Shown piece by piece: positions 15,262-20,364 of a stretch of 20,723 nucleotides of DNA. The translations under genes and the position numbers were made by a program. The notes under the pieces are model-generated. The model was not told the origin of the DNA, made no database searches, and saw only the letters and a program-made list of their open reading frames with translations. The stretch is from the UHGV virus genome UHGV-0278151; one strand, written 5' to 3'. Within the stretch, counting starts at the first letter, position 1. Each line of letters opens with the position of its first letter. This DNA is from a virus.

Positions 15262-15533
15262 CTCAACAATGGAAAGATTTTTGTGACGTTCCCGCGTGCG
15301 CGTATCACCAGCACGCAGAACAGCAGGTTAAAAAACACTTCCAGCCAGCCCGTTGCTAACGGGCGACCACACAGATAGCTGAGGGGCGCAAAGGCATACA
15401 GCAGCATCAGCAGCCAGGCCAGCCATGACATCAGCGGTTTGTGTCTGGAGTCACGACGACGATAAAAAAAGAGCGTCAGCACGATAACCGTGCATAACGC
15501 CACATTCAGTAATCCGGGAAGGTTACTTAACAT
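15258..15533 (-). CDS. Small multi-pass membrane protein in the lysis cassette (holin or antiholin-like)
   Basis: 91 aa with three hydrophobic segments (LLNVALCTVIVLTLFFY, LMSWLAWLLMLLYAFAPLSYL, WLEVFFNLLFCVLVI). ATG at 15531-15533 overlaps the end of the upstream membrane-protein gene, and the endolysin follows immediately. Confidence 0.6.
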   Translation of the reverse strand: MLSNLPGLLNVALCTVIVLTLFFYRRRDSRHKPLMSWLAWLLMLLYAFAPLSYLCGRPLATGWLEVFFNLLFCVLVIRARGNVTKIFPLLR

Positions 15534-15915
15534 TGCCGCCTCCTCCGCCCCGCAGGCGCGAGAACAGGCCGGACACCAGTGATGCGATATCCTGCTGGTG
15601 GATGAACGACAGAATCTTCACCGACACCACCGCCACCAGCACCGCACACAGTGCATCCGCAGATGTACCGTCATAACCTGTTTTTGATGCAATCCAGGCT
15701 GACAGTACACGCGCCCCCAGTACACCAACAATGAACGACACCAGAAAATGTGCCGCCACACGCCAGGCTGAAATCTTCTGCGGCATCGTTGCCACAAACA
15801 ACGCCCCGGCGAACGCACCAAACACAATCCCGAAATCCGTTCCGGTAAACAGCCCGAATACCGTCGCCCCGCCGAGCGCCGCAGCCGTGCCGGAACCGGA
15901 TAAGGGTTCAGACAT
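15523..15915 (-). CDS. Putative holin (multi-pass membrane protein, first gene of lysis cassette)
   Basis: From ATG at 15913-15915, which has an AGGAG Shine-Dalgarno at 15924-15928, the translation MSEPLSGSGTAAALGGATVFGLFTGTDFGIVFGAFAGALFVATMPQK... has three or four hydrophobic helices and a charged C-terminus. It sits immediately upstream of the endolysin. Confidence 0.6.
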   Translation of the reverse strand: MSEPLSGSGTAAALGGATVFGLFTGTDFGIVFGAFAGALFVATMPQKISAWRVAAHFLVSFIVGVLGARVLSAWIASKTGYDGTSADALCAVLVAVVSVKILSFIHQQDIASLVSGLFSRLRGGGGGNVK

Positions 15916-15931
15916 ACTTTTTCTCCTGTAA

Positions 15932-15955
15932 ATAAAAAAGGGCCACCAACGGCCC
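15932..15955 (-). terminator. Intrinsic terminator (minus strand) between TerB-like module and holin
   Basis: GGGCC-ACCAAC-GGCCC hairpin (15940-15955) followed on the minus strand by TTTTTTAT (15932-15939). Confidence 0.6.
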
Positions 15956-16002
15956 ATAAAAACACCCCATCAAAGGCACCCGCAGATGCCTTTTGTGTGG
16001 TG

Positions 16003-16155
16003 TTATTCAGATTTACGCAGTAAAGGCCGGAGCACGACCAGCGCCATCGCCACCAGCACACCATCTGCCAGCACCGACATCAGCCGTCCGGTGAAATCCA
16101 CCACCACTACCAGAAACAGCAGGATGGCAGCCAGCACAAGGCGCGCACTTTTCAC
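16003..16155 (-). CDS. Small two-helix membrane protein (about 50 aa), translationally coupled to upstream TerB-like gene
   Basis: GTG at 16153-16155 overlaps the TerB-like stop TGA (GTGA). The translation VKSARLVLAAILLFLVVVVDFTGRLMSVLADGVLVAMALVVLRPLLRKSE has two hydrophobic segments and charged ends. It is too short for the ORF track, which listed only ORFs of 60 aa or more. Confidence 0.45.
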   Translation of the reverse strand: MKSARLVLAAILLFLVVVVDFTGRLMSVLADGVLVAMALVVLRPLLRKSE

Positions 16156-16577
16156 AGGTACTGCTCCAGCGGCAACTGCAACGCCTGTGCAATTTTCTTG
16201 AGCTGCACTTCTTCATCAGGACCGATGCCGTCCTGGTCAGCAATATCCAGACACAGACACAGCACGTTAACTGCATCATCAGTACCGGCAACATCAGCCA
16301 GCTGACGAAGGGCTTCGGCATTGGCAGAACGCGGTGACGCTTCATAACGGGCGCGGATATTTGCACTCATTTGTGCAATCTCACCCGAGAACGGCGCAAA
16401 GGCAGGAAGTGCTGCAATGGTTTTCTCCAGCACAGCGATTTCTTTCGCATCACAGGTGCCGTCGGCGAATGCTATGGAATACGCACCCCAGACGGTCGCC
16501 TCCACTGCATCGCGGTTCTCCATCTTCTTCACTTCGGTAATGGCCTTGCGGGTTTTCTTTTTGAAAATACCAAACAT
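16152..16577 (-). CDS. TerB-like (tellurite-resistance TerB / DjlA N-domain family) protein
   Basis: 141 aa, MFGIFKKKTRKAITEVKKMENRDAVEATVWGAYSIAFADGTCDAKEIAVLEKTIAALP...DDAVNVLCLCLDIADQDGIGPDEEVQLKKIAQALQLPLEQYL. It shows the two-fold repeated pattern typical of TerB domains: a hydrophobic helix, an acidic DG motif, then E-rich and LxxIAxxL segments. Shine-Dalgarno AAGGA lies upstream of the ATG. Confidence 0.55.
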   Translation of the reverse strand: MFGIFKKKTRKAITEVKKMENRDAVEATVWGAYSIAFADGTCDAKEIAVLEKTIAALPAFAPFSGEIAQMSANIRARYEASPRSANAEALRQLADVAGTDDAVNVLCLCLDIADQDGIGPDEEVQLKKIAQALQLPLEQYL

Positions 16578-16835
16578 CGTGACTTTTCCTTTTAGTGGGT
16601 GAGCCTGCGCCCGGGGGTGACCAGCCCACAGAGAAAGTCACACTGACCATCCCGTAAGCTCACCCCTGAAAGGCTCTGTGGTTTTTGATGTGCGCCGGGC
16701 GTGGCGCAAAGAAATGAAATAAGACTTACCTGAAATTAAGGTTAATCTGAGGATTTAAACCATTTTTAAAGCTTAGTAATATCAACTCGTCTCCTGAAGG
16801 AGACAGATACTTATGATTCTTCATGGACTTTGTCC

Positions 16836-16867
16836 CGCGGCGTTAATCCGACGGCCGCGCTTTTTTT
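16836..16867 (+). terminator. Intrinsic terminator (plus strand)
   Basis: 6-bp GC stem (CGCGGC at 16836-16841 paired with GCCGCG at 16854-16859) followed by C and TTTTTTT (16861-16867). Confidence 0.55.
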
Positions 16868-16902
16868 GCGCCATATTCATCGCTAACTTACATGGCATTG
16901 CC

Positions 16903-16937
16903 ACACGGGCATTATCAGTGTCCGTGTTTCTTTTTTT
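16903..16937 (+). terminator. Second intrinsic terminator (plus strand)
   Basis: ACACGGGC...GTCCGTGT hairpin (16903-16927) followed by TTCTTTTTTT. Confidence 0.5.
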
Positions 16938-16958
16938 AGGATTCAGAATAAAAAAAAC

Positions 16959-16985
16959 CGCCCGGTGGAGGCGGTAAAGGATGTA
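16959..16985 (-). terminator. Intrinsic terminator (minus strand)
   Basis: ACCGCC-CGGTGGA-GGCGGT hairpin followed on the minus strand by a run of 8 T (plus-strand A-run at 16959-16967). Confidence 0.6.
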
Positions 16986-17242
16986 TTTCCAGGTTTTGCT
17001 TAATATATGAATAATCTCAATGTCATGGTGTTATTTACAACACCAGAATGATGCATCACCGACCCTGCCAGGAAATATAAAATCTCCGCCGAAAATGCAC
17101 CATTCTGCTGCCGTAAAAAAATCAGCACTGCGGCTACACCCGACCCCAAATCATAGCCAGAGAACAGAATGTTTTTAACAATCTACCCCCACGTAATAAA
17201 AAAATACGTCAGTGCCGTCACTATAAGGCGTATTTCAAATGT

Positions 17243-17312
<70 letters not shown>

Positions 17313-17446
17313 TGACGGTTTTATTGCCACATCCGTAACAACAGTCGACAGGAATAATATACATTCAGAATCAGCCGCCTTAGCTAATTGTGCAACCATC
17401 TGCTCTTTGCAAGTGCACTTAACGTCCTGCGCCACTTTTCAGGCAT

Positions 17447-17469
17447 AAAAAAACCCGCTCAGTGGCGGG
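17447..17469 (-). terminator. Strong intrinsic terminator (minus strand)
   Basis: CCCGC-CACTGA-GCGGG hairpin followed by TTTTTTT on the minus strand. It is near-identical to the element at 18171-18195. Confidence 0.7.
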
Positions 17470-17600
17470 ATCTTTTGATAAAAACGACAAAGGCACCATT
17501 AAGGTGCCTTTTACACAGGGGCAGCAGGCTTGTCATCACCTCATCGCTACTCCTGGCTTCCTGTTCGGAAGTCTCACAAGTCCCATCAGGGTACAGCGAC

Positions 17601-17629
17601 AGTATCAGCCAACACACTATGTGTGTCAA
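17601..17629 (-). promoter_or_regulatory. Sigma70-type promoter (TTGACA-17 bp-GATACT) with a 15-bp dyad in the spacer
   Basis: The minus strand reads aTTGACAcacatagtgtgttggctGATACT. The -35 is consensus at 17624-17629, the spacer is 17 bp, and the -10 (17601-17606) matches 4 of 6. The spacer contains the palindrome ACACACATAGTGTGT. Confidence 0.55.
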
Positions 17630-17640
17630 TATAAATTCAT

Positions 17641-17673
17641 ATCGAATTCGATAATCGTTTTCGATTATCGATA
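17641..17673. repeat. Tandem dyad-symmetric sites ATCG-N4-CGAT (x2) plus TATCGATA
   Basis: ATCGAATTCGAT (17641-17652, perfect 12-bp palindrome), ATCGTTTTCGAT (17654-17665) and TATCGATA (17666-17673). They overlap the stop codon of the PemK/MazF-like gene and lie 12 bp upstream of the -35 at 17624-17629. Confidence 0.7.
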
Positions 17674-18066
17674 CAGATAAGCCATCCCTATCCCGTGCAA
17701 TACCGCCCGTTTAATATTCTCAAACTCATCTTCCGCAATCATAGGAACAATATAATTTCGTCCCTCCCAGGTTCTGGTTTTTATGCGATCCAGTCGGCTC
17801 AATGAAACCGTCATCAACATGTCACATTTTACCCAGCAAGTAATATGCTCATTACCAGGTATGGGGTTTTCTGATAACTCATGATGGCAATCTCTGCGAG
17901 GGAGCGGTTCAGTAGTGCTTATTGGTACCACTGTTACCAATTGATTGTTGTGCCTGTTTCTGGACACGACCACCACTGGCCTGACCTTGACTATTTCCGG
18001 AACAACCATTCCCCGAAAATCACACATTAAAACAGAACGAACAGACGGCTGATACTTTAATACCAT
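17665..18066 (-). CDS. PemK/MazF-family-like protein (candidate endoribonuclease toxin), no adjacent antitoxin ORF evident
   Basis: From ATG at 18064-18066 the translation is MVLKYQPSVRSVLMCDFRGMVVPEIVKVRPVVVVSRNRHNNQLVTVVPISTTEPLP...ITCWVKCDMLMTVSLSRL...EDEFENIKRAVLHGIGM. This aligns by motif with Kid/PemK and MazF/EndoA (GDIxxVDF-like strand, VRPxxVV, N..., VxVVPITS, hhxCDQhxTIDxxRL, C-terminal helix). Confidence 0.55.
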   Translation of the reverse strand: MVLKYQPSVRSVLMCDFRGMVVPEIVKVRPVVVVSRNRHNNQLVTVVPISTTEPLPRRDCHHELSENPIPGNEHITCWVKCDMLMTVSLSRLDRIKTRTWEGRNYIVPMIAEDEFENIKRAVLHGIGMAYLYR

Positions 18067-18150
18067 AAATCTCTTTGCCTGATAATGACGACTTGTGAAC
18101 TCCACTACAAACAAAATGATTCTGCTGAACAGGCAGTTTCGCACTATACA

Positions 18151-18156
18151 TTATAA
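18151..18156 (-). promoter_or_regulatory. Consensus -10 hexamer (TATAAT) upstream of PemK/MazF-like gene; no good -35
   Basis: The minus strand reads ggTTATAATgtatagtg, 85 nt upstream of the ATG at 18066 and immediately downstream of the terminator at 18171-18193. Confidence 0.4.
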
Positions 18157-18170
18157 CCTGTTAAGCCAAC

Positions 18171-18193
18171 AAAAAAACCCGCTCGGCGGCGGG
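18171..18193 (-). terminator. Intrinsic terminator (minus strand) between the 229-aa gene and the PemK/MazF-like gene; nin-region tR-like
   Basis: CCCGC-(CGCCGA)-GCGGG hairpin followed by TTTTTTT on the minus strand. It is a direct near-repeat of the 17447-17471 element (23 of 25 bp identical). Confidence 0.65.
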
Positions 18194-18259
18194 ATTTGCT
18201 TACTTTGCCATCGAGTACAAAATCGGCAAAATATCAGATTTGCACGAAATATATGCCTT

Positions 18260-18949
18260 TTAATCTACTTTTGCAACACTTTGCTTTGAAAATGCCGTCT
18301 TTTGTTCTGAACGTGTTCTCATCACAAACAATAAAGCCTCACTATCCAGCCGGTGGAAAATGTGTTTCATTGCAACCCAGTGACCAGTAAATGTTTTGGA
18401 CCAGTTTTTTGTTGTTACTCCCGCCAGTAATGCCAGTTCCTGATATTCATAAGTTTCACGCCCAGCTAGCTCACTCTTCACATCCTGTGCCGCCAGCCAG
18501 ATTAATTTTTTCAGGCGCTCCCGTGTTTTCTCCGCAATTTTTCTGGTACCAGATTGCGCGTTAAATTCATTCCACGCCCACTGTGTTATCGCAATCTGGT
18601 GTTCCCAGCAAATGCTGCCGCTGTAACACCACAGCAACCAGGCTTTATAGTGTTCTTCAAGAGACAGAACCGCCCGTCGCCATGATGATGTCGAAAACTC
18701 AACCTGACTTACCAGAGGAATTGACGTCCTCTTTGCCAGCGATTGTTTCCCCGGGATTGGTGGATTATCCCGCGTTATCATTTTTCCGGTCACTTCATCG
18801 CGGTACCGGATTTTTTTACGCCTGTAACGCCCTGTATCAAACATGGCATTCTCCTGCCAGGCTTCAAGCTGACCTTTTGTTGCCCCACTCAAATCGGCGG
18901 TGGCAATAATGAGCTGCTCACGAACAAACTGTAAATACTGGTTATTCAT
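18260..18949 (-). CDS. nin-region protein immediately downstream of rusA; candidate late-gene antiterminator Q (assignment positional, family not verified)
   Basis: 229 aa from ATG at 18947-18949, which overlaps the rusA stop (ATGA). It occupies the last position of the early-right/nin block before the late control region. I could not recall a confident sequence match to lambda Q or any other Q family. Confidence 0.4.
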   Translation of the reverse strand: MNNQYLQFVREQLIIATADLSGATKGQLEAWQENAMFDTGRYRRKKIRYRDEVTGKMITRDNPPIPGKQSLAKRTSIPLVSQVEFSTSSWRRAVLSLEEHYKAWLLWCYSGSICWEHQIAITQWAWNEFNAQSGTRKIAEKTRERLKKLIWLAAQDVKSELAGRETYEYQELALLAGVTTKNWSKTFTGHWVAMKHIFHRLDSEALLFVMRTRSEQKTAFSKQSVAKVD

Positions 18950-19305
18950 GCGCACTCCAGCCCTGTGATTTTTATCCCCAACCGACCACCAGGAACGACC
19001 TGACCGCGCACAATATTGATTTCATCAAACTGCTCGTCGTCGATAAGCAGTCCCGCATACGTCAGCGCATCCAGCGGTGCTTTCAGAATATTGTCCAGGT
19101 CACGACGGCGCTTATCCGGCGGCTCTGCAATGATCTTTATCGCCAGCCTTCCGGACAGGTTTAATTTCAGCCGCTGCTGGCGAACAATAAGCGCCACATC
19201 ACGGCGATAACGCTCACCGGCTTTTGATACAAAATATGTGCTGCCACGACGACGCCAGTAGGTGTTCACCGTCGGCGGGTAAGGCAAAACAAACTCTATA
19301 CGCAT
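18946..19305 (-). CDS. rusA: Holliday junction resolvase RusA
   Basis: 119 aa, MRIEFVLPYPPTVNTYWRRRGSTYFVSKAGERYRRDVA...PDKRRRDLDNILKAPLDALTYAGLLIDDEQ.... It has the RusA signature (PPSVN/TY...RRDLDN...DD) and a GAGG Shine-Dalgarno before the ATG at 19303-19305. Confidence 0.85.
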   Translation of the reverse strand: MRIEFVLPYPPTVNTYWRRRGSTYFVSKAGERYRRDVALIVRQQRLKLNLSGRLAIKIIAEPPDKRRRDLDNILKAPLDALTYAGLLIDDEQFDEINIVRGQVVPGGRLGIKITGLECA

Positions 19306-19317
19306 CAGTAACCTCTT

Positions 19318-20364
19318 TTACCCGAGCACGCCGGTTGCAAAGGCGCGATCAAGAAAACGAAAAATTAAATCAATCTGGGAACCATGCTTTTCTTCGAACG
19401 CCAGCGGATCCGCATGAAGCTCGTTGTGATGCTCCCGACACAGCGGTAGCGTGAAAATATCGTGGGATTTTGTCCCTATTCCGCCCTGACCATGACCAAT
19501 CAGGTGATGGGGATCGTCGGCTGGCTTACCACAACACGCACACGGCTGTGTCTTTACCCAGCGCGTATATTTCTCATTTACCCAACGGCGACGTTTAGGT
19601 CGCTTCATGAAAGATTCCGGAGACTCCGGATCAACAGCAATGCTGACCACCGTCTTTTCCTGTGGTGGGTTTTGCTGGTGGGCGTGAGGCAGCGGCGCAA
19701 GATTTTTTGTGCGCTGCTTCAGTATGCTGATGGCGGTCTGCTCTCCCGGTACGATGTCGCTTTCGCGGTACACCGAGCGAATTTTTTCCGCACGTAACCC
19801 CAGAGAACGACGTAATACTACCTCCGGTAGTGCGTCCGCCACCTGATTGCAGACAGCCCACCAGGATAATTCAGCCAGCGATAATTCCCGCTCCTGTGTG
19901 CCATTCATTGCATGGCGCATGACGTCAATCATCCATGCTGACAGGTTTTGGTGAGCAAGTTGCTCAAGTGATTCGGAGGACTGGTCACGCAACTGGTTGT
20001 CACAGTGCCAGCACAACACCATCGCGCCAGCACCGTAACGATGTATGACGGTTTCGCTGTGATGGTAATCACCATGAGGCCACTGGCAGGATTTAATATG
20101 GCGCAACAGCCAGTCAGACAATGCACCAGCACCACCAGCAGCACGAATTACCCGTGCGTTACTGAAAAACGGCAGCAATGTTTTGTCTTCCACCAGCGGC
20201 TGGCGAGCGGCAGGAACGACCCCGGACGGCAGATTACGCATGCTTTTCGGTTCCGGCTCCACCAGTACCCGGGTATTGTGGAATACCGGCATGGATTCAC
20301 GGCCCGGCTTAACGACCACCAGCCCAAGTTCCGGTACCAGAACAGGTCGAAGTAATACCCGCAC
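19318..20364 (-). CDS. DUF968 / NinG-like nin-region protein with C-terminal Cys/His (HNH-like) motif
   Basis: About 348 aa (GTG start; an internal ATG is possible). The C-terminus reads RPKRRRWVNEKYTRWVKTQPCACCGKPADDPHHLIGHGQGG...LCREHHNELH, which resembles the lambda NinG/Rap-type Cys/His region. Confidence 0.7.
   Translation of the reverse strand: MRVLLRPVLVPELGLVVVKPGRESMPVFHNTRVLVEPEPKSMRNLPSGVVPAARQPLVEDKTLLPFFSNARVIRAAGGAGALSDWLLRHIKSCQWPHGDYHHSETVIHRYGAGAMVLCWHCDNQLRDQSSESLEQLAHQNLSAWMIDVMRHAMNGTQERELSLAELSWWAVCNQVADALPEVVLRRSLGLRAEKIRSVYRESDIVPGEQTAISILKQRTKNLAPLPHAHQQNPPQEKTVVSIAVDPESPESFMKRPKRRRWVNEKYTRWVKTQPCACCGKPADDPHHLIGHGQGGIGTKSHDIFTLPLCREHHNELHADPLAFEEKHGSQIDLIFRFLDRAFATGVLG

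Follow-up and report, generated by a model that had tools for sequence, protein, structure and literature searches.

Type III toxin-antitoxin (TA) systems, known from the ToxIN, CptIN and TenpIN families, combine a protein endoribonuclease toxin with a non-coding RNA partner, contain no protein antitoxin, and are found on phages and mobile elements. The partner is a repeat RNA of 34-45 nt, a single promoter serves the system, and a terminator is located between the repeats and the toxin. ToxN is structurally related to Kid/MazF, and phage ΦTE is said to carry an antitoxin-like RNA alone, pseudo-ToxI. One description of these systems places the tandem RNA repeats upstream of the toxin gene (PMC8860590). 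The recent type III papers returned by our literature search deal with toxIN, cptIN and tenpIN. Here, we analyze a locus in the virus genome UHGV-0278151 (20,723 nucleotides, below referred to as the window), in which a structured small RNA is encoded downstream of a gene for a PemK/MazF-like protein, both on the minus strand.

The locus resembles the type III systems in that an endoribonuclease toxin, here predicted, is accompanied by a non-coding RNA and by no protein antitoxin, in its occurrence on phages and mobile elements, and in that some phages have the RNA alone. It differs from them in that the RNA is a single structured molecule of ~115 nt, which has its own promoter and lies downstream of the gene, with no tandem repeats seen in a repeat search, and in that the protein scores as Pfam PemK (PF02452) and not as a member of the ToxN, CptN or TenpN families. 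With the type II systems MazEF, PemIK and Kid-Kis it shares the toxin fold, the conserved Arg and Ser/Thr positions and membership of the PemK/MazF family, but there is no MazE/PemI-type gene or conserved neighbouring open reading frame (ORF), and a conserved RNA occupies the position of the partner. In our assessment, the evidence tilts towards the RNA being the type III-like antitoxin of a MazF-fold toxin, in a new architecture.

A conserved small RNA with its own promoter

The original prediction for this part of the window had proposed either a promoter-driven, terminated, non-coding small-RNA gene or a unit of the late-promoter type. All the elements that it described are present on the minus strand, and the small-RNA gene is borne out. 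The core of the RNA (17594-17477) corresponds to positions 1-118 of a covariance model, R1, which was built from 10 enterobacterial copies only and scores it at 144 bits. It consists of the hairpin P0 (17591-17582), an invariant single strand, CUUGUGAGACU (17580-17570), the stem P1 (17570-17558), the stem P2 (17557-17513) with an invariant loop, GAUGACAA (17537-17530), and the 9-bp hairpin P3 (17511-17489), which is followed by GTCGTTTTT and, together with its U-tract to ~17480, forms the family terminator. The same succession of P0, single strand, P1, long P2 and GC-rich P3, then UUUGUCnUUUCU, is seen in an alignment of 75 sequences, where P1 is variable and carries a large insertion in Pseudomonas. 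The invariant single-stranded motifs are CUUGUGAGACU, the P2 loop and UUUGUC; variants of the P2 loop in the family include GAUGACAA and GAUAACAA.

The RNA of the window folds with a z-score of -4.5. In the alignment of the 75 homologues, 94.2% of the cells are paired, as compared to 34-54% when the partner columns are slid, compensatory changes are found in 26 of the 33 pairs, and the covariation score of 0.488 (at most 0.10 in the slid controls) was reached by none of 500 shuffles. Because this alignment was fitted to the model, the structure test was repeated with MAFFT and RNAalifold; applied de novo to 19 diverse sequences, it recovered P0, P1 and P2, with 15 of 23 pairs compensated. Compensatory changes in P2 are also seen in two divergent copies obtained by pattern scans of IMG/VR (L008 and L015; loci are cited by number), in which the positions of the promoter hexamers are kept while the spacer and the upstream dyads differ. 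A candidate pseudoknot between CUUGU and the ACAAG loop was rejected, since L150/L117, L099 and L127 alter one side with no compensation.

Rfam 15 was searched at both the gathering and a permissive threshold, with the window as well as with four homologous loci. No family matched the RNA, IsrK, the ToxI-type RNAs and the pemK motif included, and the best matches overlapping it covered the terminator only (E ≥0.5). For L130, L096, L101 and L174, no Rfam match overlapped the RNA except a chance match to Histone3 on the reverse strand of L130 (E 0.31). Nothing relevant to the RNA motif sequences, yifN or orphan MazF was found in the searchable literature, outside which most subscription journals fall. 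The product is probably RNA, as had been proposed: the start codon of the mini-ORF ATG AGG TGA (17544-17536) reads ATA in L002, and an ORF that starts at an AUG in the loop is also not conserved, its product ranging from 4 to more than 50 aa, with no AUG in some copies.

The RNA is preceded by a sigma-70 promoter, TTGACA-17-GATACT (17629-17601; -35 element 17629-17624, -10 element 17606-17601), which matches the consensus at 10 of 12 positions and ranks best of the nine promoter-like sites in 15500-19500, as compared to 4.6 expected from shuffles. Alignment of 72 distinct homologous upstream sequences showed A at -11 in 71, T at -10 in 61, A at -9 in 65 and T at -7 in 63, with the TTG at -35/-34/-33 retained in 51, 56 and 42 sequences, respectively. 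The -10 element ends 6 nt before +1 in 66 of them and +1 is a G in 71, so that the start predicted near 17593 agrees with the conserved 5' end of the RNA, G17594. The mean promoter score is 8.2 out of 12, as compared to 4.9 at random positions of the same loci. Since the promoter is located at a conserved, fixed distance from +1, and in the Caulobacteraceae is situated inside coding sequence, the RNA is taken to be a separate transcript everywhere. A -10-like TACCCT at +2 to +7 of the RNA is a resemblance in sequence only.

The original prediction had the transcript pass a weaker hairpin (17491-17513) and stop after ~145 nt. Both terminators are present, but the term weaker is misleading: the first hairpin is P3, which is identified as the terminator of the family because most lineages have no other. 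The RNA thus most likely starts at G17594 and ends at P3 and its U-tract near 17480, giving a main product of probably ~115 nt, with the 145-nt species as a read-through form. The second, backup terminator (17471-17447; stem 17469-17454, T7 run to 17447) is specific to the enterobacterial lineage; it has been swapped in L015 and L008 for an unrelated sequence that is still a terminator, and is missing in Pseudomonas and other lineages. Terminator-like sites are frequent in the region as a whole, with 15 between 15500 and 19500 as compared to 4.0 expected.

Linkage of the RNA to a PemK/MazF-like gene

The gene upstream of the RNA (18066-17665, minus strand) encodes a YifN-like protein of 133 amino acids, a putative endoribonuclease toxin, which matches PF02452 with an E-value of 7.6e-14 (52 bits, cutoff 23). 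Its RefSeq annotation is that of a type II PemK/MazF toxin, and the group to which the protein belongs is labelled "YifN (PemK superfamily)" by JGI. In its AlphaFold2 model (predicted local distance difference test, pLDDT, 88.8) the protein has a MazF fold: the top Foldseek matches are all MazF toxins (probability 1.0, template modelling scores 0.6-0.8). Residues R29-P30 align with R29-P30 of MazF and the invariant S50 with T52; R29 and T52 of MazF are catalytic residues. The distance from the type II toxins is nevertheless large, with an identity to the solved MazF structures of 14-22% and an E-value of only about 0.05 for the family profile against their sequences. The family comprises 696 clusters at 50% identity (E ≤1e-10). 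A putative promoter and 5' untranslated region (UTR) of the gene (18160-18067, minus strand; -10 element TATAAT, 18155-18150) were read from the sequence. No ORF for a protein antitoxin is present in the window between the terminator that follows the antiterminator gene Q and the PemK-like gene, and a comparison of 12 diverse loci showed no conserved protein gene in the neighbourhood.

We searched with R1 for the RNA at 80 loci from one-genome-per-species contigs, which had been picked by protein similarity alone (45-58% identity). It was found at 78 of them (E 3e-20 to 4e-4), always on the strand of the gene and no more than ~170 nt from the stop codon, with an overlap between RNA and gene end in a few Caulobacteraceae. 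These loci span Pseudomonas, Caulobacteraceae, Burkholderiales, Pasteurellaceae, Anaerolineales and Cytophagales. L165, one of the two loci with no match, is truncated by its contig end and hence uninformative, which leaves 78 of 79 informative loci with the RNA. The sole informative YifN-like gene with no RNA downstream is that of Alysiella crassa (L170:2501-2890), in which the otherwise invariant Asp82 is replaced by Asn (D82N; WAKCNM), as expected if a toxin without an antidote is tolerated only when inactive, although this is a single case.

In closer homologues, from Enterobacter, Xenorhabdus and Atlantibacter, the RNA is located 36-68 nt past the stop codon. The surroundings of the gene differ: it follows a PF03589-type Q or Mu Mor in Enterobacter and a PF06530-type Q in Xenorhabdus, and has a non-phage context in Atlantibacter. 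Altogether, the gene is found after three different families of Q, after Mu Mor, or outside phages. The RNA and its promoter also occur in chromosomal, non-phage contexts, and their distribution extends over several phyla. No copy of the RNA was found in a collection of phage GenBank records at blastn sensitivity. A few hundred nucleotides downstream of the module, Rfam identified a C4 antisense RNA (P1/P7-type) in Pseudomonas putida (L130:3457-3543) and sRNA-Xcc1 in a Pasteurellaceae genome (L101:3131-3219), which suggests mobile-element neighbourhoods at these two loci.

RNA-only copies are frequent in phages, whereas protein-only copies are almost absent. In E. coli, the RNA was found in four arrangements: with the gene, as a deletion derivative, in a pR' leader, and behind an ant-type promoter. 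In the natural deletion derivatives (L003, L009, L016 and L021; for example L003:3400-3700), both the PemK-like gene and the -35 element upstream of the RNA are gone; what was the 5' UTR of the gene now runs into the promoter spacer, and the RNA itself is intact. In L004 and L005 (3415-3660), the RNA starts at about +45 of a lambda-like pR' leader (TAAATT...AACGAT) after a PF03589-type Q, and with its terminators it may double there as late leader and tR'. Six loci (L183, L185, L186, L190, L192 and L195) contain the RNA with no PemK-like gene; here, it is situated between a PF03589-type Q, which ends 55 nt before it, and the holin gene (L185:4850-5110, minus strand). Orphan RNAs are also found among tail and baseplate genes (Dit-like, gp18 plug, hub) of non-E. 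coli phages, in L194 (4531-4660), L196 (4575-4704, minus strand) and L197; that of L196 has kept its own promoter, TTGACT-17-AATACT. L193 is a further locus that has the RNA without the protein.

Some degraded and mosaic copies were seen as well. In L015 (2025-2424), codon 19 of the PemK-like gene is an in-frame TGA, with the RNA intact. The yifN gene of E. coli K-12 is a pseudogene; downstream of it (L181:4902-4956), there is a possible relic of the RNA, with a P0 hairpin and GGGACCUGCGA, at a non-significant E-value of 0.41. If this relic is real, both halves of the module decayed together. The ant-type arrangement, L006, is a mosaic of an ant promoter region and the RNA. The P3 hairpin sequence AGGCACCnTAATGGTGCCTTTGTC is common to the RNA and the leader of the antirepressor gene ant in Stx1 and Stx2 phages (L092:3501-3676; 316 phage records), and in these Shiga toxin (Stx)-converting phages the ant leader with AGGCACCnTAATGGTGCCTTTGTC is located between the lysozyme gene and Rz.

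Candidate functions of the RNA

The RNA is probably an antitoxin, because it accompanies a MazF-like toxin that has no protein antitoxin. In the mechanism that we propose, the MazF-type endoribonuclease would be the toxin and the constitutively made RNA the antitoxin, which would bind the toxin directly, its loops being presented to the dimeric toxin as pseudo-substrates in the manner of type III systems. The cassette would then act as an addiction or abortive-infection module, and the RNA-only phage copies as orphan antitoxins or anti-defence decoys. What is universal is that a MazF-fold protein occurs together with an RNA whose unpaired motifs are invariant. The excess of RNA-only over protein-only copies fits a toxin and its antidote as well, which favours an RNA antitoxin with the protein as its target.

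Several points weigh against an RNA antitoxin. The toxicity of the protein, its neutralization by the RNA, the direct binding of the two and a role in defence are steps that we infer. Both the gene order and the single-copy RNA are unlike every characterized type III system, and neither PADLOC nor NCBIfam has a model that matches the protein. The structure counts for the 75 homologues come from a model-fitted alignment, and the frequency of RNA-only copies is not unbiased, since copies were found with the RNA pattern. The in-frame stop in L015 and the yifN pseudogene of K-12 indicate that the module is dispensable in some hosts. Finally, a complementarity of 9-12 nt between the RNA and the 5' UTR, seen in enterobacterial cassettes only, hints at an antisense part instead of or besides binding.

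If the RNA is the antitoxin, RNA antitoxins reach past the three type III families to the classic MazF fold, in a different architecture. We tentatively extend this to a fourth, phylogenetically wide class of RNA-antitoxin TA or abortive-infection systems, which we regard as possible rather than probable. Its members would combine a true MazF/PemK-fold toxin (~700 clusters at 50% identity) with one RNA of ~115 nt and four helices, transcribed from a promoter of its own. Two invariant loops of this RNA, acting as pseudo-substrates, would block the dimeric toxin. Where temperate phages have the RNA without the protein, be it in pR' leaders, downstream of Q or amid tail genes, it would serve as a decoy to disarm the system of the host. 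RNA-only phage copies could act as decoys in counter-defence. Hundreds of PemK/MazF-like genes without an antitoxin are annotated as type II, and our results suggest that the YifN-like subfamily is paired with a conserved structured RNA, a partner that is invisible to annotation pipelines and Rfam. The yifN pseudogene of K-12, so far unexplained, appears as a decayed copy of the module with an RNA relic downstream. The alignment and the covariance model could become an Rfam family.

A non-TA ribonucleoprotein, in which the RNA would serve the MazF-fold protein not as an inhibitor but as a dedicated substrate, cofactor, guide or sensor, for instance in defence or RNA processing, is unlikely but deserves the most serious consideration among the alternatives. 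The linkage, the covariation and the invariant single-stranded motifs fit such a particle equally well, and toxicity is itself a deduction. The RNA-only phage copies and the near absence of protein-only copies, on the other hand, suit an antidote better than a cofactor, and proteins of the MazF fold in which the Arg and Ser/Thr pair is present are typically toxins.

It is rather improbable that the RNA is a trans-acting, Hfq-type small RNA (sRNA) of prophages that regulates mRNAs of host or phage with CUUGUGAGACU as the seed, comparable to StxS, AgvB, AsxR and Pas, the PemK linkage being incidental or regulatory. Its invariant unpaired 5' segment, its terminator hairpin with a U tail and the orphan copies at phage leader and moron positions would suit an sRNA of this kind, and the late regions of prophages are rich in them (10.64898/2026.05.13.724894). 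The likeness to PasA-D, AgvB, AsxR, Esr41 and STnc100 extends to a similar size, the terminator hairpin and the neighbourhood of RusA, Q, TerB and holin genes. There is, however, no Rfam match of the RNA to AgvB, AsxR, STnc100 or Esr41, and the unit is conserved far outside Escherichia. Within E. coli it is found in 37 genomes, as compared to more than 1,000 genomes with Pas, namely 1,362 of all complete prokaryotic genomes for the Pas small RNAs of enteropathogenic and enterohaemorrhagic E. coli (10.64898/2026.05.13.724894). Identity with AgvB, AsxR or StxS was rejected, there being no Rfam match and the distributions not fitting; identity with PasA-D of E2348/69 is judged unlikely on the indirect evidence of the genome counts. 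Moreover, the RNA stays with one and the same protein family in phyla between which no common target mRNA would be expected.

About equally improbable is an antisense antitoxin of the type I kind, which would prevent translation of the PemK-like mRNA, or cause its decay, through base pairing with the 5' UTR. As in hok/sok, the RNA partner has a separate strong promoter, and enterobacterial copies show local complementarity to the leader of the toxin mRNA. In the window, positions 13-21 of the RNA (17582-17574) are perfectly complementary over 9 nt to UCACAAGUC in the 5' UTR (18098-18090), 32 nt upstream of the ATG. L008 and L174 have a perfect complement of the P2 loop, GGUGAUGACAA, at -25 of the gene, with a length of 11-12 nt. 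The locus differs from type I systems in that the protein is a 133-aa soluble RNase fold and not a small membrane peptide, in that the RNA is not antisense-encoded, and in that the complementarity is not conserved. In more than 55 other lineages, an exact-complement scan found the RNA and the 5' UTR to match over 5-6 nt at most. The co-folding energy was no better than for dinucleotide-shuffled UTRs in 10 of 10 lineages (z -0.6 to +1.8), and cognate and non-cognate duplex energies were equal, as calculated with full-length duplexfold, a poor method for this question. Nor do the invariant motifs of the RNA have an invariant counterpart in the mRNA. Antisense control of the toxin mRNA was rejected as a general mechanism, the complement scan and the co-folding energies against shuffles giving no support.

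The original prediction also likened the unit to the pR'/6S-RNA/tR' arrangement, that is, a late promoter with a 6S-like leader and tR' under control of Q and operator dyads. The layout is indeed that of lambdoid pR' units and of StxS, with a constitutive promoter and a short transcript that is terminated, here by up to two terminators, upstream of the lysis genes. This reading is very unlikely for the window, where the RNA unit is separated from Q by a gene of 402 nt and another unit (18276-18171, minus strand) directly follows Q. The latter probably represents the true pR' with a short leader and tR': its promoter, TTGCAA-17-TATATT (18276-18271 and 18253-18248), overlaps the end of Q, and a terminator is found ~55 nt further on (18193-18178 and T run). 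The unit stays conserved where the 3' end of Q diverges. Among 5426 complete E. coli genomes, 1813 have it together with this type of Q, and every listed record shows it under the end of a Q gene; the RNA unit was found in 37 genomes. It showed weak, sub-threshold Rfam matches to IsrK/IsrJ (E 0.2-0.5). Furthermore, the RNA and its promoter form a family that extends outside phages and is tied to the PemK-like gene, the RNA has no similarity to any late-leader RNA in Rfam, and the dyads and the spacer palindrome are not conserved. The idea of late control finds a partial echo in other phages, in which the RNA lies within the pR' leader (L004/L005) or just past the pR' position, 55 nt downstream of a PF03589-type Q (the L185 group).

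That the RNA is solely a cis-acting 3' element of the PemK-like mRNA, a stabilizer or terminator block with no separate function, is scarcely credible: it does lie immediately 3' of the gene and contains terminators, but its promoter is the best conserved feature outside the RNA, its loops are invariant in sequence, unlike simple terminators, and orphan copies retain the whole structure without the gene.

The inserted cassette and its prophage setting

The sequence 17440-17680 was found in 37 E. coli genomes only, and since the Q-proximal unit is present in 1813, the segment from ~18170 to 17447 is interpreted as an inserted cassette. In an O157 prophage, tRNA genes and TerB directly follow the Q-proximal unit. 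The cassette, a mobile unit of two genes, the PemK-like gene and the RNA, has the position of a moron: it is preceded by the real pR'-tR' unit that follows Q, and the tRNA, TerB and lysis genes come after it. Its borders are formed by the second terminator of the RNA (17471-17447) and the terminator after Q (18195-18171). Over 25 nt, these form a direct repeat with 92% identity and a distance of 724 nt, which suggests insertion or recombination at the tR' terminator. In prophages of the type found in Shiga toxin-producing E. coli, a promoter and a terminator between Q and the lysis genes are accordingly not necessarily pR'.

Upstream of the -35 element of the RNA, the dyads and TATCGATA are present as had been described (17641-17673). 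The two ATCG-N4-CGAT dyads (17641-17652 and 17654-17665) are the sole ones in the window, as compared to 0.35 expected, and a count of two was reached in 5 of 100 shuffles. Together with TATCGATA (17673-17666) they form a perfect 10-bp inverted repeat (17671-17662 / 17657-17648), which overlaps the stop codon of the PemK-like gene (TAA, 17667-17665). Folded as RNA, the cluster (17673-17640, minus strand) gives an AU-rich 10-bp hairpin over the stop codon (-14.2 kcal/mol, z -2.9). This hairpin is not conserved in L015, L174, L177 and L130, and judged by the sequences compared the cluster is specific to the E. coli lineage and outside the conserved module. Within that lineage, the loop of the hairpin is flipped from AAAA to TTTT in L019, and L012 has a 12-bp deletion between repeated ATCGA units, in the region equivalent to 17648-17671.

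The promoter spacer had been described as containing a 15-bp palindrome; a dyad is present, but it consists of two 6-bp arms and a 3-nt centre (ACACAC-ATA-GTGTGT). Operator control by the dyads and the spacer palindrome, as originally suggested, finds no support in conservation, since these elements are absent from the cassettes of other genera and variable within the E. coli lineage, in which they may serve a lineage-specific regulation.

Read on the minus strand, the window represents the late region of a lambdoid prophage of E. coli, and E. coli SE11 is 100% identical to it over the tested kilobase. In the order of the minus strand, the genes are DUF968 (19318-20364), RusA (18946-19305), the PF06323-type antiterminator Q (18260-18955) and the PemK/MazF-like gene (17665-18066), followed by the RNA unit, a tRNA-like fragment, TerB, two holins and an M15 endolysin. 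The tRNA-like fragment is the sole element of the window that passes the gathering threshold of Rfam 15; it scores 48 bits for model positions 8-63 and was not called by ARAGORN. It is a chimeric pseudo-tRNA (17240-17320, minus strand), which combines the 5' half of the tRNA-Arg(UCG) found in a related prophage (L005) with the 3' half of tRNA-Gly(UCC), with the intervening tRNA-Thr deleted and an acceptor stem that is unable to pair.

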